In this document: positions 2,418 to 56,738 of the stretch, in pieces | Layout: each line of letters starts with the position of its first letter | Position numbering within the stretch: the first letter of the stretch is position 1 | Source: a virus | IMG/VR virus record: IMGVR_UViG_3300045988_176983 | Location: 1 to 60,301 of that record | Length of the DNA: 60,301 bases | Strand: one strand, 5' to 3' | Translations under genes and position numbers: made by a program | Notes under the pieces: generated by a model | Seen by the model: the letters and a program-made list of their open reading frames with translations, nothing else | Told to the model about the DNA's origin: nothing | Database searches by the model: none

Positions 2418-4667
2418 ATGTCCGACGGTTTCTGGAAAATACTTGCGTTAAAAGGCATAAAAGGCGGCGGTGATACGCCAACGCAAGAAAAAACGGTTGC
2501 TCTCGATATGGCAAACGGCAATCAGATAATAACACCCGACGACGGCAAAATAATGACCCAAGCCACGGTATTAAAGCCTGCGACTATGGTTGCGGGGAAT
2601 ATCAAAAACGGCGTGAATATCGGCGGCGTGGTCGGTAGTTTAGTTGGGAAGTTGCCCGAAGAAACTAAAACTGTCGATTTGGCTATGGCGAACGGTAATC
2701 AGACCGTTAATACCGACAGCGGAAAGACAATGAGTGCCGTCGTAATAAGAAAACCCGCCACGTTAGTACCGTCGAATATAAAGAAAGACGTTGATATTGG
2801 CGGAGTTGTCGGCTCTATGGAATCGGGTGCGCTCGACGGACTTGTAGACGGTTCTATCACAAATTTCGTTATGCCTGCCGATAAAACGCAGATAGTACAA
2901 TATCGTTTTTACGGTTTTGAAAATTTGGTTTCGGCGGATTTAGGCAACGTTCAGGATATAGGCAATTACGCGTTTTATCAATGCGTTAATTTGGCGAGTA
3001 TAACGCTTCCCGAAACGACCGAAAGTATAGGCAATAATGCGTTTGACGGTGATTCAAACGTTACGCATTTAAGCGGAACTATCGACGGAAATATCGGCGA
3101 TTACGCTTTCAGAAATTTAATTAAAGTCAGCGAATGTGATTTTTCCGATTTTAATATTCATTCTTTGGGTCAGTATGCGTTTTCGGCTTTTGGCGGGGCG
3201 AGAACGAATCCGTCTCAAAATTTGCTCGTCGTAGACTTGTCAAAATCCGACTTAAACAAAATACCTCAATATTGTTTCGGCACGAGCAGTTCTACGAACA
3301 AAATAAAATATATGCAATTTACTTTCCCGAGTACCGTAAAATCGATAGACGGTTACGCCTTCGCTTATGCGGATAATTGTGATTTCTATTTTGCAAGTTC
3401 AACGCCGCCTACGTTATCGGCTACTACCGTATGGAATAATATTACTAACAGTAAAATATTCGTGCCGTATGGTTCGATAAACGCTTACAAAACTGAGACG
3501 AATTGGACTACGCAGGCAAGTAACATTATCGGTTACGTCGGCGCGGGAGTGTTATCCGTCGGAAGCGAGTTGCCAACTCTCGGCGCAGAAGGCTACGCTT
3601 TGACTTGGTTCAGCGACAAGGCTTGCACGGTATCCGCAACGACCGTCGAAAACGCCGATACGACGTATTATTGCACGATTGGCACTGAAAAAATCGGCTA
3701 CGGAGTTAAAACCGTTTATGCACAGTCTTGCGGCGTTACGATTTCCGACGGAACGAAAACCTATCGTGAAGGCGACGGTATTCTAACGGGTACGGTTGTA
3801 ACTATAACGACGGCGGCTACCGAAAGCGGATTTGTACCTTATCTCTTACAGGTAAACAATCAGGACTTCACGAGTGGCGATACGTTTACAATGAACGAAG
3901 ACCTGAATATTACTGCGATTTATTGGGATGGCGAAAATATTCCCGTACTGCCTGTATTCGGCGATAACAGTTGGGTTATGATACGACAAGCCTTCCGAAA
4001 CGGAATTGCCGCAACGTTGTGGGCTGTCGGCGACCAGAAAGAAGTTACGCTCGGCGACGGGAATACGTATCATATCAGAATTGCCGATATGCAATCGGGT
4101 AGATATAATCTTACCGATGGTAGCGGAACGACAAAAGGCGTTCTCGAATTTGTCGAGAGTTTACCAACGGGGTACGCTATTAACTCGTCGCAAGTTACGG
4201 ATGGCGACGTAACGGCATTTACGGCAGGCGGTTGGGCAATGTGTCAAATGAAGAACACTACTCTTGACGTAACCGTGTGGGGTTGGTTGACCGACGATAT
4301 GAAAAAAGCAATCAGTGAAATCACTCTTAACGAGTACAGTTATTCTTCGCCGTCGCCTCGTGAAAGTACGAATAAATTATTCTTACCCGCCGAAACCGAG
4401 ATTTTTATGTCGCGACATAAATCAGGCGAAGGAAGTCAAACGGGTTGCATAAAATATGATAGATTTGATTATTATGCCAGTGCGATAAACGATGAAGATT
4501 CACCAGTAAGGCAAAAGCACATGGTTGGAGGAACTCTCGTTAGTTGGGGGTTGCGGTCGCCAGTAGAGAGTAGTAAGTTTGATTTTTGCCGTGTTGGTTT
4601 TTACGGCAGTTACGACACAATTGGTGCAAGCAACGCAATAATGGTTTCCCCATGCTTTGCAATATAA
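2418..4667 (+). CDS. Leucine-rich-repeat (BspA-type) surface or receptor-binding protein with N-terminal tandem repeats
   Basis: 749 aa. It carries repeated IGxxAFxxCxxLxSIxLP-type LRR units (for example IGNYAFYQCVNLASITLPETTESIGNNAF). The C-terminal LFLPAETEI...WGLRSP motif resembles the WLRSP domain of gut Firmicute surface proteins, as recalled from memory. Confidence 0.7.
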   Translation: MSDGFWKILALKGIKGGGDTPTQEKTVALDMANGNQIITPDDGKIMTQATVLKPATMVAGNIKNGVNIGGVVGSLVGKLPEETKTVDLAMANGNQTVNTDSGKTMSAVVIRKPATLVPSNIKKDVDIGGVVGSMESGALDGLVDGSITNFVMPADKTQIVQYRFYGFENLVSADLGNVQDIGNYAFYQCVNLASITLPETTESIGNNAFDGDSNVTHLSGTIDGNIGDYAFRNLIKVSECDFSDFNIHSLGQYAFSAFGGARTNPSQNLLVVDLSKSDLNKIPQYCFGTSSSTNKIKYMQFTFPSTVKSIDGYAFAYADNCDFYFASSTPPTLSATTVWNNITNSKIFVPYGSINAYKTETNWTTQASNIIGYVGAGVLSVGSELPTLGAEGYALTWFSDKACTVSATTVENADTTYYCTIGTEKIGYGVKTVYAQSCGVTISDGTKTYREGDGILTGTVVTITTAATESGFVPYLLQVNNQDFTSGDTFTMNEDLNITAIYWDGENIPVLPVFGDNSWVMIRQAFRNGIAATLWAVGDQKEVTLGDGNTYHIRIADMQSGRYNLTDGSGTTKGVLEFVESLPTGYAINSSQVTDGDVTAFTAGGWAMCQMKNTTLDVTVWGWLTDDMKKAISEITLNEYSYSSPSPRESTNKLFLPAETEIFMSRHKSGEGSQTGCIKYDRFDYYASAINDEDSPVRQKHMVGGTLVSWGLRSPVESSKFDFCRVGFYGSYDTIGASNAIMVSPCFAI
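2490..2819 (+). repeat. Intragenic tandem duplication (two units of about 51 aa, 59-aa period)
   Basis: KTVALDMANGNQIITPDDGKIMTQATVLKPATMVAGNIKNGVNIGGVVGSL is repeated as KTVDLAMANGNQTVNTDSGKTMSAVVIRKPATLVPSNIKKDVDIGGVVGSM. Confidence 0.85.
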
Positions 4668-9830: not shown

Positions 9831-11072
9831 ATGAACGCAAAATCCTTAAACGCTTTGTCGAGAGATATATTCTCTTACAAATCCAACAACAATCAAAAAA
9901 TCAAAGTTTGCTCTGCCGAAGGAAAGTCGAGAGAAATCAGCCGCGACGAACTTATCAGCGCGGGCAGACTTGCAACCGTCGAATATTTCGGCAGAATTGC
10001 GAACAAGAGCAGAAGCAATTCCTACGCTACCAAAGTAGAAGATTACGCGTCTTTTTCGCGTAACACTTGGGTAAACACGGTGCTTTTCTGCGCGGCGCAG
10101 GCTAACACGGTAATCGGTAAAGCCCCGTACTCGACTATGCAAGAAGTCGAAAACGACCTCGGACTTTACAAAAACCCGATTTTCCTTAACGCGTTGCAGT
10201 CGATTTCGCAAGAAGTTATCACGCCGTTGCTTCCCGCCGTTATGGACGGAGTAATGGACAAACTCGTTACTTGGGAAAGAGGCAGAATCGGCGAAACTAA
10301 ACTCGTAGACGTTTTGTCTAACGACTTCTTCGTATTCGACGACGATTCTTGGGGTTCTGTTTCGAGTAAACCGTATCAGTACCTTTACAAGAGCCAAGTC
10401 GCCGTTACGCCGAAGCCCTATACCGCGAAGACCAAAATCAAGTGGTATCAGGACGTTATCGACGGCGAAGCGGGTCGTTACTATGCGGCGTTTGCACGCG
10501 GCGCGGCAAGCAAAATGTACGCTATGACGCTCGGTGAATTTAACAAGGCAATCGCAGACACGAAATATATGCCTTCGGGTAGCGTAATCGACGGTTTCTC
10601 GCTTGATAACTGGAATCAGGCGTTAATGCAGTCGCAAGCACTTAACGGCGTTTCCCGCGCTCAACTTATGGCACTCGGCTCTCTTGCCGGACTTTCCAAA
10701 ATACTTCCTACGGTCGGCACTGACGGCGCGGTGGCGGGTATTCAGGGCGAAATCGGTACGGAGTTCGTAAGAAACGGTTTCCTTGCCAACGTCGCAGGCG
10801 TAGACCTTATCGAAGCGGGTCTTGCAGTTGTTCCCGGTACGCAGAACTACAATCCGAAATTTCTCGGTCTTGACGACGCGACGAATAAGAATATCTACGT
10901 TATGGCTAAAATCGGTTACGCGCCTATGGTAGGTGCAATTGCCGAGGGTTCACCCATAACCATTACGTTTACCCCCGAAGAAACCGCCGATATGACTATC
11001 GACATTTCGGAAACGTTGGTATTCGACATTAAACCCGCGTTCAGTTCCAGAATAATCAAGATTAAGATTTAA
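9831..11072 (+). CDS. Major capsid protein (candidate)
   Basis: 413 aa with RBS taggagg. The call rests on position after the scaffold gene and on a stable hairpin immediately downstream (11107..11134). Confidence 0.55.
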   Translation: MNAKSLNALSRDIFSYKSNNNQKIKVCSAEGKSREISRDELISAGRLATVEYFGRIANKSRSNSYATKVEDYASFSRNTWVNTVLFCAAQANTVIGKAPYSTMQEVENDLGLYKNPIFLNALQSISQEVITPLLPAVMDGVMDKLVTWERGRIGETKLVDVLSNDFFVFDDDSWGSVSSKPYQYLYKSQVAVTPKPYTAKTKIKWYQDVIDGEAGRYYAAFARGAASKMYAMTLGEFNKAIADTKYMPSGSVIDGFSLDNWNQALMQSQALNGVSRAQLMALGSLAGLSKILPTVGTDGAVAGIQGEIGTEFVRNGFLANVAGVDLIEAGLAVVPGTQNYNPKFLGLDDATNKNIYVMAKIGYAPMVGAIAEGSPITITFTPEETADMTIDISETLVFDIKPAFSSRIIKIKI

Positions 11073-28709: not shown

Positions 28710-29657
28710 TTATACGCTTTGTAGGCTGTTCGTAAATTTATCCATTGCCGAGACGGCAGACTGAATGGCAGTGTCTTTATTGAGTATGTGCCGATAAACT
28801 TGTGCCGTTACAAGTGGGTTAGAGTGTCCGAGGTTTTGCGATATTTCGGTCATCGGCATACCGCTCAAATCGCATAAACTCGTGAAAGCGTGGCGTAATG
28901 CGTGAGTCTTTACACTATGTCCGCAGCAATGCTCGGTGTATCTATGAACGAGCATAAGCAGGGCAGGCGACGAGAATTGCTTCCATAATTTACCGCCGGT
29001 ACTTTTGCCGTTCTCGTCCGAATCCGTGCCGAAAAGATAATCGTTGTCGGTACACCAGTCGGGGCGAATACCGCTCGAAAGATACTCTTCGATTATTTCC
29101 TTTGCAACTCGCGGCATTGCAACAAGTCGTTGCTTATCGCCTTTGCCGTGCCGTACCATGATCCTGTTCTGTTCGAAGTCAAGGTCGGCGACGGTCAACG
29201 AACGCAGTTCGCTGTTACGCAAGCCCGCCTGCAAAAGTAAAACTATAATAGCGCGGTTTCTGATTATCGTTTTCCCGCTTAACCCGGTCGGAGTTTTCGT
29301 TATTAGGCTTTTGATTTCGTCGAGCGTTAAAAGGTCATACTCGACGCGTTGCTGTTCGGGTATCTCGTCAAGGTGTACGGGGTTTTCCTGTTCGATTTTC
29401 ATTTTGACGCACCACTCGAAAAATGAGTGTATGAAAATCATATACTGCCTTACGCTGTTTATCTTTATCCCGCTCATAGAAAGGCTTGAACGCCAATTTA
29501 CGACGGTTAAAGGCGTTATCTGTTCGTCGGCTTTCAAGAAGTCCGAAAACTTCCTGAAAGCCAAACTATAAGCCGTAACGGTCTTATCCGATTTCTTCAT
29601 AGAGGGTAGGGCGATAAGGTATTGAGTGCTTATCTCGTTAAATTGTTCTTTATTCAT
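28710..29657 (-). CDS. Tyrosine recombinase, XerC/XerD-like
   Basis: The C-terminal catalytic region reads HALRHAFTSLCDLSGMPMTEISQNLGHSNPLVTAQVYRHI (R..HxxR..Y pattern) and ARNSELRSLTV is upstream of it. The start was set at the second Met (29657), which overlaps the upstream micro-ORF stop. Confidence 0.85.
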   Translation of the reverse strand: MNKEQFNEISTQYLIALPSMKKSDKTVTAYSLAFRKFSDFLKADEQITPLTVVNWRSSLSMSGIKINSVRQYMIFIHSFFEWCVKMKIEQENPVHLDEIPEQQRVEYDLLTLDEIKSLITKTPTGLSGKTIIRNRAIIVLLLQAGLRNSELRSLTVADLDFEQNRIMVRHGKGDKQRLVAMPRVAKEIIEEYLSSGIRPDWCTDNDYLFGTDSDENGKSTGGKLWKQFSSPALLMLVHRYTEHCCGHSVKTHALRHAFTSLCDLSGMPMTEISQNLGHSNPLVTAQVYRHILNKDTAIQSAVSAMDKFTNSLQSV

Positions 29658-29814
29658 TTTTGTTTCTCTCATTTTTAAGCCGACTATTTTCTGCTTTTAA
29701 TTTTTTAATTCTTTTCTCGTACTTCAAAATCATTTGATTGATTTCGCAGTCTTCGCAATCGCCATAATCGTAGCAATACCCAAGTTTGCCTTGTTTACAT
29801 TTTTGTTGTTTCAT
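29650..29814 (-). CDS. Small Cys-rich / basic protein (54 aa), not in the supplied ORF track
   Basis: Translates as MKQQKCKQGKLGYCYDYGDCEDCEINQMILKYEKRIKKLKAENSRLKNERNKNE. RBS ggagaacagca is present. There is an ATGA overlap with the upstream gene, and its stop overlaps the recombinase start. Confidence 0.5.
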   Translation of the reverse strand: MKQQKCKQGKLGYCYDYGDCEDCEINQMILKYEKRIKKLKAENSRLKNERNKNE

Positions 29815-39250: not shown

Positions 39251-39276
39251 GAACCCAAAAAATGAACCCAAAAAAT
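39251..39276. repeat. Tandem 13-bp direct repeat GAACCCAAAAAAT x2 abutting the integrase stop (arm-site candidate)
   Basis: Two exact copies at 39251..39263 and 39264..39276. ATTTGTTAT repeats lie just upstream (39224..39250). Confidence 0.6.
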
Positions 39277-40418
39277 CATTGTATGCGGGATATAATATTG
39301 CGTTTGTCTTCTTCGTATAAATGACCGTAAGTTTTGAGAACCTGCTCGACGGTATCGCCTATAAGGTCGGCTACGACGTAAACGCTTGCGCCGAGGTGAA
39401 TACACATAGAAACGAAAGAATGTCGTAGGTCGTGTATTCTTATGCGTTTAACGCCTGCTTTTTCGATATAGCGGTCAAACGCGTGAGCAAGGCTGTTTTC
39501 GTGTAAAGGGTGGTCGCCACTAAAATAAAACGGTTTCTGCGGGGTGTAATTTGCGAGAACTTTTTTAAGAGGGTCGCAAATAATTGTTTTAGCCCGGCGT
39601 TCGTTTTTAGTGGTGGTGATTTTGTAAGGGGAGTTGTCGGTTGTTTTCCGAGTATAAGTTTTGTCGAATACGATATAGTCGCGGTGTACGTCGGTATTGT
39701 GTAGGGCAAGAACTTCGCCTTTTCGCCGTCCTGTAAAATAGAGTGTGTTAAAAATGGCATAGTAGGCGGGGTTGTCCACTACGTCGATAAATTTAGCGAA
39801 CTCTTCGCGTGTCCAGAACTGCATTTCGGTTTTTTGTACGCGTTGCTTCGGCTTTTTTACTTTTTTAAGATTGTTAGGGTATTGATAGCGAGATTCGACC
39901 CAAGACAAAAACGCAGCCATTGTATTGCGGATATTGCAAAGACGACTGTAAGAATAAAACTCGCCCGTGCGAGGGCTGCGCGTACTCCATAATTTGTCTT
40001 GCCATTCGTAAAGTTTAGGTGGTGTTAAATCGGCAATTTTAGTGTTTCCAAAATAAGGCAAGATAAAATTGTTTAAGACGTTGGCTCGGTCGTAAATCGT
40101 GCTGTCTTTGTTTTGGTTTACCATTGAAGTGAGATAAATAGGAATAAGGCTTTCGACCGTTAATTCCTCTTTACCTTCGGCAATGGATTTTTCTTTTTTG
40201 AGAGGTAAATTTTTAACGATTTCGCAGTTTTTCGTTATGAAGTCTATATGCGCCTGCTTTGCGAGGGCTTTCGACTTGTAACCCGATAACTTTTTGTAGG
40301 TTTCTTCGCCGGTAGGGAGTATTACCCTGAAACGAATGTCGTAGACTTTTCCGTTTAATTTCGTCTGCCGTTCTTGTATGTTTGCTTTCGTGCTGCTTAT
40401 GTAGTACTTCTCGTTCAT
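39276..40418 (-). CDS. int: Phage integrase (tyrosine recombinase)
   Basis: 380 aa. The C-terminal region reads RIHDLRHSFVSMCIHLGASVYVVADLIGDTVEQVLKTYGHLY. The N-terminus is arm-binding/SAM-like. It lies adjacent to the attP-like repeats and the repressor module. Confidence 0.9.
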   Translation of the reverse strand: MNEKYYISSTKANIQERQTKLNGKVYDIRFRVILPTGEETYKKLSGYKSKALAKQAHIDFITKNCEIVKNLPLKKEKSIAEGKEELTVESLIPIYLTSMVNQNKDSTIYDRANVLNNFILPYFGNTKIADLTPPKLYEWQDKLWSTRSPRTGEFYSYSRLCNIRNTMAAFLSWVESRYQYPNNLKKVKKPKQRVQKTEMQFWTREEFAKFIDVVDNPAYYAIFNTLYFTGRRKGEVLALHNTDVHRDYIVFDKTYTRKTTDNSPYKITTTKNERRAKTIICDPLKKVLANYTPQKPFYFSGDHPLHENSLAHAFDRYIEKAGVKRIRIHDLRHSFVSMCIHLGASVYVVADLIGDTVEQVLKTYGHLYEEDKRNIISRIQ

Positions 40419-47338: not shown

Positions 47339-49423
47339 ATGCAGATAAGTATGTTTGACGGCGATAAGCCTTTCAAGGTTGATAAACCGTTGAGATTGAT
47401 AACTCTTTTTTCGGGGTACGACAGTCAGGCGTTGGCTCTTAAATATCTCGGCGTGCCTTTCGAGCATTACAAAACGTGCGAATGGGCGATTCCGTCGATA
47501 CAGGCGTTAAAAGACCTGCACTTCGAGAACGACGACACCGATTATTCGGTCGGAATGAATAAAGCCGAACTCGTAGAAACTTTATATACGGCGGGCGTGA
47601 GTGCCGATTACAACGTGCCGCTCACGAAAGAACAATTGCAAAGATACGGCGAAAACAAATTGCGGACGATTTACAATAATATCCGCGCTTGCCACAATCT
47701 CGTTTCGATATGCAATGCAAAAGGCGAAGACTTGGGAATTAAAGAAACGAACAAATATTGTTACTTACTTACGTATAGTTTTCCGTGTTTAACAGCCGAT
47801 AGTTTAATTTTAACAAAAGACGGGTACAAACCGATTGTTGACATAAAAGTGGGCGATTATGTTTTAACAAAGTCGAACACTTGGCAGAAAGTTGCGAAGA
47901 AATTTTCAAATGGTATACATAAAACCTTTTACGTTCAAGGAATGAATTTTGAAAATATTCACTGCACTGCCAACCATAAATTTTATGTCAGGTCAAAATT
48001 TTATAAAGGACACAAAAAAATTCGTTCATTTACCGAACCCGCTTTCAAGGAAGTGAAAGATATAACGCGTAACGATTATTTCGGCGTTCCTGTTATTCAA
48101 ATCGAAAAGTTTTTTTATACAAACGATTTAGATTTTTGGTATATGATAGGCTATTACTTGGGCGACGGGTGGTTGAGTAAAAACGGAACAGATATATGCT
48201 TGGCTTGTAACGATAAAAAATTTGAAAAATTACAATCGCGACTTCTGAAAGAAAAATGGAATTGGACTTGCTATTTTTCTTCAACGTGTGGACGATTTAG
48301 GTTTTCAAATAAAAACATATACAAGTTCATTAAGAAGTATATCGGAACGGGTTGTAATAAAAAGAATATTAGTGCCGATATTTTGAATTTGCCTAAACAG
48401 CAACTTCAAGCATTGTTTGAAGGGTATTTAGACAGCGACGGTTGTGTAATCAATGGTAAAATGCAATTTTCTACGGTTAATAGGCAAATGGCGTATGGGT
48501 TTTCAGCGATAATAAATAAACTTTACCATAGGGCGGTAAGTTTTAATAGAACCAAAGTAAAACCACAAAAAGTAATACAGGGTAGAATTGTCAACCAAAG
48601 AGAGTGGTATTTATTGAGGTTTAACCCTAAAAACTCGAAACAGGACAAGGCTTTTTATGAAAATGGGTATATATGGTATCCGTTTAATAAAATCGAACAA
48701 GGCGACGACGAGTTTGTTTTCAATATGGAAATAGAAAACGACCATAGTTATATCGTTCAATCTTGTATCTCGAAAAATTGTCAGGACTTATCCGCCGCCG
48801 GGTTAGGCAAAGGTATGGAACGCGGGAGCGGCACTCGAAGCGGTATGCTTTGGGAAGTCGAAAGGCTTTTGAAAGAAACGAAAGAACTTCCGCAAGTGCT
48901 TTTAATGGAAAACGTAAAACAGGTAATCGGGCAAAAGAACATTAAAGCGTTCGCCGAGTGGGTAGCGTTTTTAGACGAACTTGGTTATCACTCGAAATGG
49001 CAGGTAATAAATGCGACGGACTTTTCAATTCCGCAAAACCGCGAGCGTTGCTTTATGGTAAGCGTACTCGGCAATCACTATTACGAATTTCCGAAAACAA
49101 TCGGCAACAAGTTAAAACTAAAAGACTTACTCGAAAAGTCCGTCGCCGAGCAGTACTACATAAGCGAAAAAATTGTTGAGACCTATTACAAGAGAAACAT
49201 TCTCAACGAGGAAAAGGGAAACGGTTTCAGGTTTGAGCCTACCGAGGGGGAAAACGTTGCCAACTCGGTGCTTACAAGAAACGGCAGTCGCCCTTGCGAT
49301 AATTACATTATTCAACGTTCTCACGGGTTCAATAAAGGCGGTAAGAAAAACGACTGCCCGGCAATAACGACGAGTGCATTTGAGCAAAATAATATGATTG
49401 TAGAGGTAAACCGTGAAGAATGA
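47339..49423 (+). CDS. DNA (cytosine-5) methyltransferase, N-terminal/catalytic module (motifs I-VIII), interrupted by an intein
   Basis: Motif I is LFSGYDSQ. Motif IV is split as TYSFP | intein | CQDLSAAG. Motif VI is LLMENV and motif VIII is QNRERCFMVS. Confidence 0.85.
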   Translation: MQISMFDGDKPFKVDKPLRLITLFSGYDSQALALKYLGVPFEHYKTCEWAIPSIQALKDLHFENDDTDYSVGMNKAELVETLYTAGVSADYNVPLTKEQLQRYGENKLRTIYNNIRACHNLVSICNAKGEDLGIKETNKYCYLLTYSFPCLTADSLILTKDGYKPIVDIKVGDYVLTKSNTWQKVAKKFSNGIHKTFYVQGMNFENIHCTANHKFYVRSKFYKGHKKIRSFTEPAFKEVKDITRNDYFGVPVIQIEKFFYTNDLDFWYMIGYYLGDGWLSKNGTDICLACNDKKFEKLQSRLLKEKWNWTCYFSSTCGRFRFSNKNIYKFIKKYIGTGCNKKNISADILNLPKQQLQALFEGYLDSDGCVINGKMQFSTVNRQMAYGFSAIINKLYHRAVSFNRTKVKPQKVIQGRIVNQREWYLLRFNPKNSKQDKAFYENGYIWYPFNKIEQGDDEFVFNMEIENDHSYIVQSCISKNCQDLSAAGLGKGMERGSGTRSGMLWEVERLLKETKELPQVLLMENVKQVIGQKNIKAFAEWVAFLDELGYHSKWQVINATDFSIPQNRERCFMVSVLGNHYYEFPKTIGNKLKLKDLLEKSVAEQYYISEKIVETYYKRNILNEEKGNGFRFEPTEGENVANSVLTRNGSRPCDNYIIQRSHGFNKGGKKNDCPAITTSAFEQNNMIVEVNREE
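47786..48778 (+). mobile_element. Intein (331 aa) with a LAGLIDADG homing-endonuclease domain
   Basis: Block A is CLTADSLILTKDG and block B is TANH. The LAGLIDADG motifs are WYMIGYYLGDGW and LFEGYLDSDGC. The C-terminal block is VFNMEIENDHSYIVQSCISKN. The +1 residue is the Cys of the methyltransferase PC motif. Confidence 0.85.
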
Positions 49424-50128
49424 AACAAAAGGCTGTATTGTCATCGGACGGCTTGGCGGTAAATTCGAGCATACTCTTGACCTTACAAGACGAGTTTATG
49501 ACGTTAATGCGGTTGCGCCGACTATAACGACGTGCGGGGGGGTAATACAGAACCTAAAATTATGGAAGAAAAAGATTATCGTTTTTACAATCAGGCGTGG
49601 GAGACTATAAAAAATCACGACTGTAAAGCGGGCGACATAGTAGACGCTTTTAACAAAAAAGTCAACGATAGTGGCATATCCCCGACGATTACTACGCGCC
49701 CGGAAGGTTTCAAAACCGCAATATTGTTAGTTGACGAACCGCAACAAGACAAAGAGATTATCGTCTTTGACGATTATAACGGTTGCGTAAAAGCCGACCA
49801 AAGTTCCGTCGGAACTTTGACACGGAATTGCGGGAACGACGCAATACGAAACGGAATAAAAATCGTAGAAAAAGAAGCGGATAGACAACAAGATATTGCC
49901 CCATATCGAATACGAAAACTTACGGAGCGAGAATGTGGCAGGCTTATGGGCGTTAAAGACGACGACATAGCCAAAATCGGCAAGAATTTAAGTCGGTCGG
50001 CACAATATCATATGTTTGGCGACAGCATAGTAACGAGTTGCCTTATGGCGATATTTGGCAAAATGTTTAACGTAGACTATGAAAGCAAAATTAAAGAATT
50101 AACAAAAAATTTAACAGGAGAGGGTTAA
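49413..50128 (+). CDS. C5-methyltransferase C-terminal module (target-recognition repeats plus motifs IX-X), with a reading-frame change at a G7 tract
   Basis: The frame-0 piece (GTG 49413, RBS agagg) reads ...RVYDVNAVAPTITTCGG. After G7 (49536..49542) the sequence continues in the -1 frame as GNTEPK...ISPTITTRPEG...RKLTERECGRLMGV...FGDSIVTS, ending at 50128. Confidence 0.6.
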
Positions 50129-53225: not shown

Positions 53226-53415
53226 AAGAAAAGTAATTCGTTGCGAACACTTAAACGCCGCTAAACAAAAATGCGGCAATTATATAGGCAAATTCGTCGG
53301 CGAAACTGTCATAATCAAGCGGCACGGCAGAGAGATACATATCGGCGCGGGGCAGTCCGTCGAAATCAAATGCGAGCGTTGCGGGGGCATAACGAAAGTC
53401 GAATGGAAACTCTAA
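53203..53415 (+). CDS. Small zinc-ribbon protein (70 aa)
   Basis: Contains CEHLNAAKQKCGN...KCERCGG. Confidence 0.5.
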   Translation: MESWVMTKRKVIRCEHLNAAKQKCGNYIGKFVGETVIIKRHGREIHIGAGQSVEIKCERCGGITKVEWKL

Positions 53416-54101
53416 TCGAAACAAACAAGGTTTACAACTGCGACTGTATAGAACTCTTACGTAATATGTCGGCAAGGGGGGTAAAGGCAGATTGGTGTAT
53501 AACCGACCCGCCTTACGGAATAGGAATTGAATCAATGTCGTTTACTAACGGCAAAGAGATTGCGGGGAACGCGAAAGCGAAAAGAAGAAACTATTCCGAT
53601 ACCAAACCGTGGGATAAACAGAGAATAACGAAAGAATATTTCGACTTAATCTTTAAGTGCAGTAAAAATCAGATTATTTTTGGCGGTAACTATTATACCG
53701 ATTATTTACCGCCGACGGCGAGTTGGGTTGTGTGGGATAAGCGTTGCGACGATAAAATGCGAAACGATTTTGCCGATTGCGAAATCGCGTGGTGCAGCAA
53801 AGGCGTTGCAAGAGTGTTTCATTACGTTTACAACGGAATGATTCAGGGCGATATGAAAGCCAAAGACGAACGATTTCATCCCACGCAGAAACCCACTCAA
53901 CTATGGGTCAACCTGATTAACTACTACACAAAGCCCGGCGATTTAATTCTCGATCCTTTTATGGGAAGTTTCACTACTGCGATAGCCGCGTACAGAACGG
54001 GCAGAAATTATATCGGGGCGGAACTCGACAAAGACTATTACGAGTTGGGAAGTAAACGGCTCGAAAAAGAAAAACAACAATTACGAATTTTTGATTTATA
54101 G
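53403..54101 (+). CDS. DNA N6-adenine or N4-cytosine methyltransferase (beta-class order)
   Basis: The DPPYG motif precedes LDPFMGSFTTAIAA. The start was set at METLIE; the track ORF begins upstream in an Arg-rich extension. Confidence 0.85.
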   Translation: METLIETNKVYNCDCIELLRNMSARGVKADWCITDPPYGIGIESMSFTNGKEIAGNAKAKRRNYSDTKPWDKQRITKEYFDLIFKCSKNQIIFGGNYYTDYLPPTASWVVWDKRCDDKMRNDFADCEIAWCSKGVARVFHYVYNGMIQGDMKAKDERFHPTQKPTQLWVNLINYYTKPGDLILDPFMGSFTTAIAAYRTGRNYIGAELDKDYYELGSKRLEKEKQQLRIFDL

Positions 54102-54109
54102 GAAACGAT

Positions 54110-54910
54110 ATGAGCAAAATCGATTTAAGGCTTGGCGACTGCTACGAACTCATAAAAACAATACCTGACAAGAGCATAGATTTAGTATATTGCGATATTC
54201 CTTACGATATCGAGGGTAACGGCGGTGGCGGGTGTTTCGGCGAAAAGAAACGCGATTACCACGCCGAATACGAAAAAGTCTGCGAAAACACAAACAGCAC
54301 GGCAAGCCGAGTGTATAAGTCCACAATGAAAAGTATTGACAATATCAAGGAAATTGCTTTCGGTATAGATTACGACATTTTGGACGAGTTTTGCAGAGTG
54401 TTGAAAAATATTTACGTTTATATCTGGTGCAGCAAAGCGCAGATTTTACCGCTTATGAATTATTTCGTCGGCGAGCGTGGGTGTCGCTTTGAAATTCTGA
54501 CGTGGTTGAAGTCAAATGCAATACCCACTTGCAACGGCAAATATTTAAGCGATACCGAATATTGCCTTATGTTCCGCGACGGCGGTAAGACCAAAATCGG
54601 CGGAACTATGAAAACGAAACAAAAGTATTACATAAGCCCGTTAAACGTAAAGGATAAAGGCAATTTTCTTCACCCGACGATAAAGCCGTTACCTTTCGTA
54701 GAAAATCATATTCTTAACTCGACGAAAGAAGGCGACACAGTTCTTGATTGCTTTATGGGTAGCGGAACGACAGGTTTAGCGTGTAAACACTTAAAACGAA
54801 ATTTTATCGGTTTCGAGATAGAGGAAAAGTGGTACAAGATAGCAAAAAGCCGAATCGAGGGTTACAACGCGTTCGGGCAGGGCAACTTTTTGGAGATAAA
54901 TGGATTATGA
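54110..54910 (+). CDS. Second DNA amino-methyltransferase (beta-class order)
   Basis: The CDIPYD motif precedes LDCFMGSGTTGLAC. Confidence 0.8.
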   Translation: MSKIDLRLGDCYELIKTIPDKSIDLVYCDIPYDIEGNGGGGCFGEKKRDYHAEYEKVCENTNSTASRVYKSTMKSIDNIKEIAFGIDYDILDEFCRVLKNIYVYIWCSKAQILPLMNYFVGERGCRFEILTWLKSNAIPTCNGKYLSDTEYCLMFRDGGKTKIGGTMKTKQKYYISPLNVKDKGNFLHPTIKPLPFVENHILNSTKEGDTVLDCFMGSGTTGLACKHLKRNFIGFEIEEKWYKIAKSRIEGYNAFGQGNFLEINGL

Positions 54911-55386: not shown

Positions 55387-55698
55387 ATGAAATACACACA
55401 CGAAAGCGAAGAGTTAAACACTCTTTTAGAAGAACGCTTTTCTCGCTTTGTTTGCTTAACGATTGATGAAGCCGTTAAGTATGCAGGGGGCGAAAATCGT
55501 GAAATTTGCGGTTGGCACATATCTAACTTAAAGATTTACGACAAGCCGAAAGATTTATCCTGTTTTTATAAGCCTTGCCCGCAAAAAAACGTAATTTGCA
55601 GAGATTGTGAATATTTATTTAGGATAGACGGCAGTTGTATGAATATAGTAACCCGACCGCCGCAGTCGTATATGCGGGTTGAAGAGTGGGGAGAGTAA
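55387..55698 (+). CDS. ASCH/PUA-like protein (candidate)
   Basis: GWHISNLKIYDKPKDLSCFY...TRPPQSYMRV resembles the ASCH-type proteins common in Firmicute phages, as recalled from memory. Confidence 0.35.
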   Translation: MKYTHESEELNTLLEERFSRFVCLTIDEAVKYAGGENREICGWHISNLKIYDKPKDLSCFYKPCPQKNVICRDCEYLFRIDGSCMNIVTRPPQSYMRVEEWGE

Positions 55699-55700
55699 AA

Positions 55701-56738
55701 ATGCCGACGAGAAATGAACTAACTCAATTACAGTCTTTACCGCTTGAATTAAAGGTAATGCGTACTCAACAGCGCATACGCGAATGGGTACAGTATTACG
55801 GCATAGACGGCGTTTACGTTTCGTTTTCGGGCGGTAAAGACAGCACGGTTCTGTTGGATATGGTAAGGAAACTATATCCGACGATAAAAGCCGTTTTCAT
55901 TAACACCGGGCTTGAATATCCCGAAAATCAGCAATTCGTTAAAAGTTTCGACAATGTTGAAATTCTACGCCCCGCAATGCGCTTCGACGAGGTTATAAAA
56001 ACCTACGGATATCCCGTAATCGGGAAAGAGGTAAGCGAGTGTGTATATCAAGGGAGAATGGCGTTGACAAGTAATCGATCCCCGTATCGATTACAGAAAC
56101 TATTCGGCACGGCAAAGGACAAGAACGGCAACGAAAGCAAATACAACAAGACGAAGTACGCGCCGTTGCTTTTTACGGACTTTAAGATATCTCATATGTG
56201 TTGCAACGTTATGAAAAAGAAGCCCGCTCACGAATACAGCAAAATCACGGGCAAAATGCCTATGACGGCGCAAATGGCAGAAGAAAGTCAACTTCGCGAG
56301 CAGCAGTGGCTACGCAACGGGTGCAACGGTTTTGATATGAAATCGCCGATAAGTAACCCTATGAGTTTTTGGAAGGAGCAAGACGTTCTGCAATACATAA
56401 AGCAAAACAATCTACCGATATCAAAGGTATACGGCGAAGTCGTAGTAAAAGACGACGGCGGATATCAATACGGAGCAACGCTTTGCGACTGCGGTAAGTT
56501 ATGCACGACGGGCGCGAAACGGACAGGCTGTATATTCTGTATGTATTCCGCGCATTGCAAAGGCGACGAAAGGTTTTTATTACTCAAAAACAATCACCCG
56601 CGTCAATACGAGTATTGTATGGGCGGCGGGGCGTATGATACGGACGGCTTTTGGAAGCCGACCAAAGATGGGTTGGGTATGAAGCACGTCATAGACGAGA
56701 TAAATAAAATCTACGGAGACGGCTTTATAAAATACTAA
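55701..56738 (+). CDS. PAPS-reductase-family (PP-loop) protein with a C-terminal Cys cluster
   Basis: Contains the SFSGGKDSTVLLDM PP-loop and CDCGKLCTTGAKRTGCIFC. The start was set at the ATG preceded by ggggagag. Confidence 0.8.
   Translation: MPTRNELTQLQSLPLELKVMRTQQRIREWVQYYGIDGVYVSFSGGKDSTVLLDMVRKLYPTIKAVFINTGLEYPENQQFVKSFDNVEILRPAMRFDEVIKTYGYPVIGKEVSECVYQGRMALTSNRSPYRLQKLFGTAKDKNGNESKYNKTKYAPLLFTDFKISHMCCNVMKKKPAHEYSKITGKMPMTAQMAEESQLREQQWLRNGCNGFDMKSPISNPMSFWKEQDVLQYIKQNNLPISKVYGEVVVKDDGGYQYGATLCDCGKLCTTGAKRTGCIFCMYSAHCKGDERFLLLKNNHPRQYEYCMGGGAYDTDGFWKPTKDGLGMKHVIDEINKIYGDGFIKY

Follow-up and report, generated by a model that had tools for sequence, protein, structure and literature searches.

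How does a phage DNA methyltransferase come to be written in three successive open reading frames, and is the arrangement a defect or a device? The question is raised by IMG/VR record IMGVR_UViG_3300045988_176983, of which we analysed positions 1 to 60,301 (the whole stretch of 60,301 nt, hereafter the window). It carries a C5 methyltransferase divided between two polypeptides, the second of which is interrupted at a run of seven guanines (G7). We consider it probable that the locus encodes a two-subunit C5 enzyme with several target-recognising domains (TRDs) and a poly-G contingency locus that switches anti-restriction methylation, the window being an OFF copy with G7. The argument leans on the following features (ORF, open reading frame; aa, amino acids).

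47339..49423, + strand: ORF1, gene of the N-subunit precursor, 694 aa, with motifs I-VIII, TRD A, and an intein (open reading frame; Pfam PF00145, E = 2.7e-33)
47786..48778, + strand: 331-aa intein containing a LAGLIDADG homing-endonuclease domain, ORF1 residues 150-480, between the Pro and the catalytic Cys of motif IV
49220..49411, + strand: TRD A, the last N-subunit module (NGFRFEPT...CPAITTS...NNMIVEV), aligning with the first TRD of M.H2I and M.Rho11sI
49402..49407, + strand: AGAGGT, Shine-Dalgarno sequence of the C-subunit gene, located where ORF1 encodes VEV, 5 nt before GTG 49413
49413..49535, + strand: start (GTG) of the C-subunit gene and TRD B (VKNETKGC...RVYDVNAVAPTITTC); relatives begin MKNE... 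or VKNE... at the same site
49536..49542, + strand: poly-G tract, G7, 1 nt short of the in-frame G8 (GGG GGG GGT, Gly-Gly-Gly)
49541..49569, + strand: inter-module linker GGTAATACAGAACCTAAAATTATGGAAGA (G-N-T-E-P-K-I-M-E), 29 nt, conserved at the DNA level
49543..49610, + strand: out-of-frame tail of the 65-aa truncated product (VIQNLKLWKKKIIVFTIRRGRL, then the stop), a product found on seven contigs and on three more with V for M as first residue
49562..50128, + strand: remainder of the C-subunit in the ORF1 frame (ORF3), 188 aa from ATG 49562, stop at 50128 (C-terminal end of PF00145, E = 1.5e-8)
49679..49699, + strand: TRD C, SPTITTR core
49808..49828, + strand: TRD D, VGTLTRN core
49913..49954, + strand: motif IX, RKLTERECGRLMGV
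50015..50032, + strand: motif X, FGDSIV

Motifs I, IV (PCQ), VI (ENV), VIII (QxRxR), IX, and X of C5 methyltransferases occur in canonical order across these pieces, and PF00145 matches both ORF1 and ORF3.

Length variation of the poly-G tract

An earlier reading of the letters (the sequence-only reading) had placed the end of the catalytic module at 49423, after motif VIII, and had noted that beyond the G7 run sense continues in the -1 frame only (GNTEPK...), with motifs IX and X; the Pfam match of ORF1 and the coordinates listed above agree with this, and the other sequence statements of that reading were likewise borne out. Up to the run, ORF2 reads VKNETKGC...RVYDVNAVAPTITTCGG. One more G was predicted to yield a single 238-aa subunit, and exactly this protein is encoded by L019, a contig with eight guanines (G8) that matches the window at 99.97% identity across 5846 nt, the differences being one substitution and the extra G.

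We compared 17 distinct related contigs at the tract, taken from IMG/VR, ENA, Logan, and one NCBI metagenome-assembled genome (MAG); all strain comparisons are between assembled consensus sequences. The tract is uninterrupted in 17 of 17, with G7 in five (the window, L003, L004, L016, and L020), the in-frame G8 in six (L001, L005, L014, L017, L018, and L019), G9 in three (L002, L013, and L015), and G10 in three (L024, L025, and L026). Length changes separate genomes that are otherwise all but the same: the window and L020 (G7) show 0 mismatches to L019 (G8) in 1200 flanking positions, and L001 (G8) shows one in 1200 to L002 (G9). The locus is therefore a coding repeat whose length shifts the frame between close relatives, as is expected of a contingency locus. 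A G9 tract leads to an immediate TAA; G7 and G10 lead to a few dozen out-of-frame codons and a peptide of 59-75 aa. Truncated products were also found in other lineages for G7 (one of them on 52 contigs), G9 (...TTCGGG, then the stop), and G10 (...TTCGGGVIQNLK). When homologues were sought with the 43-aa TRD B peptide, the yield was just 10 short proteins, which are informative on the G9 and G10 states but not for counts.

Could the G7 simply be a homopolymer error of sequencing or assembly, the true sequence being G8? Homopolymers are error-prone on some platforms, of which that behind the window may be one. Yet exact-sequence look-ups for this strain placed the 65-aa G7 product on seven contigs (plus the three beginning with V), the 188-aa product on seven, and the 238-aa G8 product on two, so that identical G7 products recur on 7 to 10 contigs from three assembly pipelines (JGI, ENA, and Logan). 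L020, a SPAdes-style contig at ~54x, is 100% identical to the window, G7 included, and no other homopolymer indel was found between the window and either L019 or L020. Identical strains from different metagenomes share their tract lengths, which shows that the calls are reproducible and not random assembly noise. We rejected this explanation, the lightest of the four rivals weighed here, as very improbable.

The out-of-frame alleles are under purifying selection and show no decay. When the tract is set to the in-frame length, every one of them reads through to the normal ...LTGEG end, and the ratio of non-synonymous to synonymous polymorphism (pN/pS) is 0.05-0.5 in TRD B and 0-0.27 in the segment of motifs IX-X, pairs in which both alleles are OFF included. 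The worry that the frame-0 piece might be non-conserved junk can be laid to rest: its pN/pS and its homology to a TRD of the phage H2 enzyme rule this out for ORF2. The homopolymer itself looks selected and not dictated by coding need, because 1) GGG is the rarest Gly codon of the phage (12%), and GGG-GGG occurs in none of the 52 Gly-Gly pairs of its long ORFs; 2) the run is kept in divergent lineages (G8 in L005, G9 in L021, where it is in frame as GGG GGG GGG, and G8 in L022); and 3) homologues write the same Gly-Gly-Gly in mixed codons (GGA GGA GGT in M.H2I and M.Rho11sI, where no G run reaches 5, and GGT GGT GGA in L023).

These observations bear on the weightiest rival, in which the tract is a mere mutational hot spot and G7 an ordinary loss of function in a dispensable gene, with no adaptive switch. 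Out-of-frame alleles are in the majority, the phage has two other DNA methyltransferases, and L014 (~5x) has a frame break of another kind, at a run of six A (A6) in TRD C (reverse strand, ~190 nt downstream of the G tract), all of which a hot spot would accommodate. It sits poorly with a tract that is uninterrupted in the 17 contigs, and in most of the ~20 contigs of a second lineage described below, although it is built of the rarest Gly codon; with out-of-frame alleles that lack secondary decay and have a pN/pS of 0-0.3 downstream of the break; and with in-frame and out-of-frame states that alternate within near-identical strains. We regard it as unlikely, if still ahead of the other rivals.

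Several points weigh against the switch that we favour. First, the run is the only one of at least seven G or C in the window, and one G7 per 60 kb is not above chance (shuffled sequences held 1.2 on average, and 67 of 100 held at least one). Alone, the run is thus statistically ordinary; what gives it weight is that it sits at the frame break, together with the comparative data. Second, out-of-frame alleles predominate in the sample, with 11 of the 17 contigs and, in this strain, ~10 contigs with G7 against two with G8. Such a majority would also fit a relaxed need for the enzyme, given the two further methyltransferases. Third, the intein lacks the usual penultimate His and has Lys instead (SKN/C, the slash marking the border).

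A further rival is a specificity switch: translation would restart at ATG 49562 (MEEKDY...), and the resulting 188-aa C-subunit without TRD B would still assemble, so that only the target of TRD B is lost. In its favour, gene callers predict the 188-aa ORF on seven contigs, the TAA of the G9 alleles precedes this ATG by 17 nt, purifying selection acts on the region downstream even between OFF alleles, and natural variants of working length without TRD B exist (P0001). The ATG, however, has no Shine-Dalgarno sequence, against 42 of the 58 genes in the window that have one; more distant relatives replace its Met by I, L, or V; and the G7 stop lies 45 nt past it. We hold this second-ranked rival to be doubtful.

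Recoding, the third, would let the G7 allele be expressed in a fraction of products, through a -1 slip of the peptidyl-tRNA-Gly or through transcriptional slippage. In the P site the tRNA could slip back by one base, from GGG onto GGG, which would yield the exact G8 protein, and purifying selection persists in alleles that are mostly out of frame. Even so, no RNA structure that could stimulate a shift was found downstream of the tract (z = 0.54), the zero-frame context (C GGG GGG GTA) reads as no good tandem site of the type X XXY YYZ, the sequence past the 29-nt linker varies between lineages, and G9 and G10 alleles would need different shifts. A programmed -1 ribosomal frameshift was rejected on the first three of these grounds, and recoding in general seems improbable. 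The sequence-only reading had left phase variation, a programmed -1 shift, and an error side by side; the first is now favoured and the other two are disfavoured.

Some alleles show further peculiarities. Apart from the A6 run of L014, no homopolymer other than G was seen to break the frame of the gene. L005, a relative 44% identical, has two more G tracts in modules further upstream (G10 at 3805..3814 and G8 at 3913..3920), apparently out of frame, and its TRD B tract (G8) is in frame.

Two-gene split, intein, and target-recognising domains

At the first junction, ORF1 runs past motif VIII (QNRERCFMVS, 49034..49063) and CPAITTS (49355..49375) to the TGA at 49421-49423, and GTG 49413 opens ORF2 with an 11-nt overlap of that stop. 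Since the ORF2 frame holds a TAA at 49407-49409, the two frames could be fused only within ~12 nt, a stretch without homopolymer. That the second frame starts at this GTG behind a ribosome-binding site, and that so little room is left for a fusion, had been recognised from the letters; the AGAGGT and the TAA are the elements responsible. A true two-subunit enzyme had also been thought plausible, and the recurrence of the stop/start overlap with its ribosome-binding site in many lineages supports this view.

Relatives were found with a frame-corrected query spanning both junctions. The exact ORF1 protein is present on 10 contigs. Clustered at 90% identity, N-subunits of 363-371 aa form 11 clusters (P0031, P0036 with 153 members, P0051-53, P0062, P0065, P0068, P0070, P0072, and P0091), all ending in EVN(R/C)EE at the same stop. 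Whether homologues have the C-terminal module as one ORF had been put forward as a check, and many do: separate C-subunits of 200-265 aa begin MKNE(I/T)(K/Q)GC... and continue uninterrupted through TTCGGGNTEPKIMEE (P0002, which is 91% identical, P0003, P0005, P0007, P0008 with 42 members, P0013, and P0020). There are also single-chain relatives with other module combinations (P0001, P0004, P0006, P0009, P0010, and P0012). The DNA of junction 1 is kept in relatives as GAGGT(G/A), a spacer, and an ATG or GTG overlapping the TGA. Distant relatives retain the two-gene layout with other junctions, a 4-nt ATGA overlap in L021 and a 4-nt gap in L022, which favours translational coupling and disfavours a programmed shift. 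A programmed +1 shift at junction 1 was considered and rejected, since GAA-TGA permits no tRNA re-pairing and the junctions of L021 and L022 differ. The two genes are adjacent, one with motifs I-VIII and the other with motifs IX-X, and the split falls in the variable region, as in two-subunit C5 enzymes. Judged by sequence, junction 1 is a conserved two-gene split in the M.AquI arrangement, and the two polypeptides would be expected to assemble into one enzyme.

The junction region of L004 deserves a separate mention: L004:3950..4040 holds a nonsense codon (GAA TAA for GAG CAA) 12 codons ahead of the normal N-subunit end, and its subunit junction a tandem duplication of ~13 nt. The truncated product of the L004 lineage (P0130) is the one found on 52 contigs.

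The earlier reading was right about the catalytic module of ORF1 and overlooked the 331-aa intein inserted at its catalytic Cys. The window has YSFP/CLTADSLIL...SCISKN/CQDLSAAG at the intein borders, where 363-aa alleles read YSFPCQDLSAAG; relative to these alleles (P0031 and P0036), which share the ORF1 stop, the insert is precise and in frame. Intein-free 363-aa alleles are common among relatives, and the intein-bearing protein is found in 15 cluster members. The insert has an N-terminal Cys, a block B TxxH (as CTANHKF), two LAGLIDADG motifs, a C-terminal Asn, and a +1 Cys that is the catalytic nucleophile of motif IV. In Pfam, LAGLIDADG_3 scored above the cut-off (E = 2e-8), and Hint_2 (E = 3.8e-6) and Intein_splicing (E = 4.9e-5) scored below it; the best match among solved structures, in a sequence search of PDB, was the Prp8 intein, with a marginal E = 0.008. 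Absent from other alleles and equipped with the residues just listed, the insert is an intein by its sequence and presumably splices itself out of the N-subunit.

The sequence-only reading had likened the T(I/L)T-type units to the multispecific phage enzymes, and the likeness extends to the order of the parts. Among annotated phage proteins, the multispecific enzymes of the Bacillus phages H2 and rho11s match the 238-aa subunit best, at 30% identity across 83-87% of the subunit. After splicing and frame correction in silico, the whole enzyme is collinear with M.H2I and M.Rho11sI over ~480 residues (BLASTP, 27% identity), and TRDs A, B, and C align in order with their three TRDs, TRD B (IVIGRLGGKFEHTLDLTRRVYDVNAVAPTITTCGGGNTEPKI) pairing with the M.H2I TRD IMIGHIDLKGHDAIKRVYSPDGVSPTLTTMGGGHREPKI. 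A single consensus, ..VG....VY...G..PTLTT...G......IVE, fits the four modules A-D of the window as well as the three of H2, and by it the repeats are assigned as tandem target-recognising domains. M.SPRI and M.Phi3TI are also multispecific Bacillus phage C5 methyltransferases. By analogy with such enzymes, each TRD of the window may recognise a separate target sequence. A sequence search of PDB with the C-subunit matched motifs IX-X only. The AlphaFold2 (AF2) model of the single-chain relative P0006 (predicted TM score, pTM, 0.84) has the fold of M.MpeI, M.HhaI, and M.HaeIII, with a target-normalised TM of ~0.8; its first TRD is placed at moderate confidence, and the second is unplaced.

Relatives differ in the sets and numbers of their modules, which are joined at linkers of the I-V-E type. 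The 29-nt linker is nearly identical DNA in the window, L001-L005, and L013-L018, even between modules that are 44% identical in protein, and the TRD module that follows it differs from lineage to lineage. Linker DNA so uniform between modules so varied suggests that the specificity modules are shuffled by recombination.

The proposed switch and poly-G tracts elsewhere

How might these parts work together? The N-subunit, with motifs I-VIII and TRD A, would first splice out the intein at its catalytic Cys. The C-subunit, with TRDs B, C, and D and motifs IX-X, would be translated from the coupled GTG that overlaps the N-subunit stop. The poly-G tract after TRD B would change length by slipped-strand mispairing during replication, and the switching would be reversible and of high rate, as intact OFF alleles under purifying selection indirectly suggest. 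With G8 in frame, the 238-aa subunit would be made and the enzyme would be ON; with G7, G9, or G10, motifs IX and X would not be made and it would be OFF. A phage population would then be a mix of methylating and non-methylating variants. Phage methyltransferases protect DNA from restriction enzymes, yet expose it to methylation-dependent nucleases. By analogy with the contingency tract of T2 agt, the mix may hedge bets between two kinds of host: those with restriction enzymes that 5-methylcytosine (5mC) blocks, and those (or lysogens) with methylation-dependent restriction.

A more ambitious version of the contingency idea, which we entertain with considerable doubt, is that poly-G tracts at module boundaries, one in the gene of the window and up to six, each varying independently, per gene of a related lineage, switch the methylation repertoire in combination. 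Modules to one side of a frameshifted tract would be lost, and translation would restart at the next module (here ATG 49562). If so, one phage genotype would give progeny with many 5mC patterns, beyond a plain on/off choice.

Similar tracts occur in a second gut-phage lineage, which a pattern search found in 20 IMG/VR contigs from at least 10 metagenomes and in a prophage of a Christensenellaceae MAG.

L033:6419..8892 (also L029-L048): C5 methyltransferase gene of the second lineage, with poly-G tracts at six Gly-Gly(-Gly) module sites

Between contigs these tracts range over G7-8, G6-10, G8-12, G6-9, G6-9, and G7-10, and they are uninterrupted in most of the ~20 contigs. L035 and L037 differ over 5581 nt by four substitutions and four poly-G indels, with no other indel, and the identical strains L036 and L038, from different metagenomes, have identical tract lengths. 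The coding segments between tracts are under strong purifying selection (pN/pS of 0.02 and 0.19).

The same gene holds a second oddity. At L033:6860..6900, 14 contigs share a conserved 8-nt insert that yields TTT CCA TAA GA CCT TGC CAG and separates the Pro codon of motif IV from its Cys codon, the very site of the intein in the window. It brings in a stop and shifts PCQDLS... to a frame without ATG, GTG, or TTG start; pN/pS is 0.02 in the 154 codons after it. A translational hop over the insert is conceivable, the gap being flanked by matched Pro codons. L033 has further G8 tracts at 10351, 13066, and 14040; the genes concerned are one for a MazF/PemK-like toxin and two others that resemble methyltransferase genes. 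It seems that poly-G tracts cluster in genes of DNA modification.

In the window the C5 enzyme is accompanied by two N6/N4 methyltransferase genes, which brings the phage to three methyltransferases; genes for RecT, YqaJ, and SSB are also neighbours.

53271..54101: second DNA methyltransferase (N6_N4, DPPY motif), with a short G run near its start (G6 at 53476..53481)
54110..54910 and 55686..56738: third DNA methyltransferase (N6_N4) and a PAPS-reductase-domain gene, just downstream
28710..29672, - strand, and 39276..40418, - strand: two tyrosine-recombinase (phage integrase family) genes

The G run of the second methyltransferase differs in length (window G6, L001-L003 G7, L013 G8) and may be a second variable tract; L003 appears 1 nt out of register there, at a point where its locus ends. 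The two integrase-family genes make the source, a gut phage, probably temperate. The Shine-Dalgarno usage given above would fit a Firmicutes-type host, the only basis for a host assignment being relatives in one Christensenellaceae and one Lachnospiraceae MAG. A search of the phage collection for near-identical DNA gave 0 matches, as did the 24-nt linker pattern sought in species-representative genomes.

If the proposed switch holds, a built-in random device would hold both options, methylated and unmethylated, open to a temperate gut phage, and in lysogens it could impose a switchable epigenome on the host. To our knowledge, contingency loci in phage DNA-modification genes have been demonstrated experimentally only for T2 agt; the present data add widespread natural evidence from many human-gut-type metagenomes. 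The 65-aa and 188-aa ORFs that dozens of virome contigs carry as "frameshifted" methyltransferase fragments represent alleles of a single gene, not junk. Finally, the family is a ready library of shuffled TRD modules with DNA-conserved linkers, which may aid the engineering of methyltransferase specificity.

Comparison with known systems

The split has a well-studied counterpart. In M.AquI the larger chain holds motifs I-VIII and the proximal part of the variable region, and the smaller chain the distal part and motifs IX-X; other splits in the variable region, natural and engineered, are active, and fragments of M.BspRI, M.HhaI, and M.SssI complement each other (PMC3404938). The window shares with M.AquI the division of motifs between chains and the adjacency of the genes. 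It differs in that the break falls between two complete TRD modules of a multi-TRD array, with an 11-nt start/stop overlap, and in having an intein in the N-chain and a variable poly-G tract in the C-chain gene. With M.H2I and M.Rho11sI it has in common the phage origin, the single catalytic core, the tandem TRDs of ~40-50 aa with a P-T-(L/I)-T-T core, and one TRD clearly homologous to TRD B, GGG..EPKI included; those enzymes, unlike that of the window, are single chains without intein and encode the GGG as GGA GGA GGT.

The intein shares with other LAGLIDADG inteins the N-terminal Cys, the TxxH, the two LAGLIDADG motifs, the C-terminal Asn, the +1 Cys, and the existence of intein-free alleles. 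Its peculiarities are the host protein, a C5 methyltransferase, the use of that enzyme's own nucleophile as the +1 residue, and the change of the penultimate His to Lys. A literature search, which was not exhaustive, found no report of an intein in a phage C5 methyltransferase; for poly-G tracts it found phase-variable bacterial methyltransferases and phage contingency loci, and no report of such a tract in a phage C5 enzyme.

Among the bacterial systems, the Type IIG gene cj0031 of Campylobacter jejuni is reported to have a poly-G tract in the methyltransferase coding sequence whose length changes move the frame (PMC4889913). Phase-variable bacterial methyltransferases (phasevarions) thus share with the window a coding homopolymer in a DNA methyltransferase and length changes that move the frame. 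They are chromosomal genes of bacteria, mostly of Type I, III, or IIG, whereas the window has a phage-borne orphan C5 enzyme with the tract at a boundary between specificity modules.

Closest in logic are the contingency loci of phages themselves. The poly-A tract of T2 agt and the poly-G tracts of the receptor-binding-protein genes of Campylobacter Fletchervirus are, like the tract studied here, homopolymers that frameshift phage genes; they give mixed progeny, as it too may do. The T2 tract is a toggle of DNA modification that trades susceptibility to one Type IV restriction system for susceptibility to another (bioRxiv 10.1101/2025.10.21.683753). Although the window differs from these loci in enzyme class, tract base, and host group (gut, Clostridia-like), and its case is built from comparative metagenomics alone, it shares with T2 agt that the gene encodes a DNA-modification enzyme and that the likely trade-off lies between two restriction systems.

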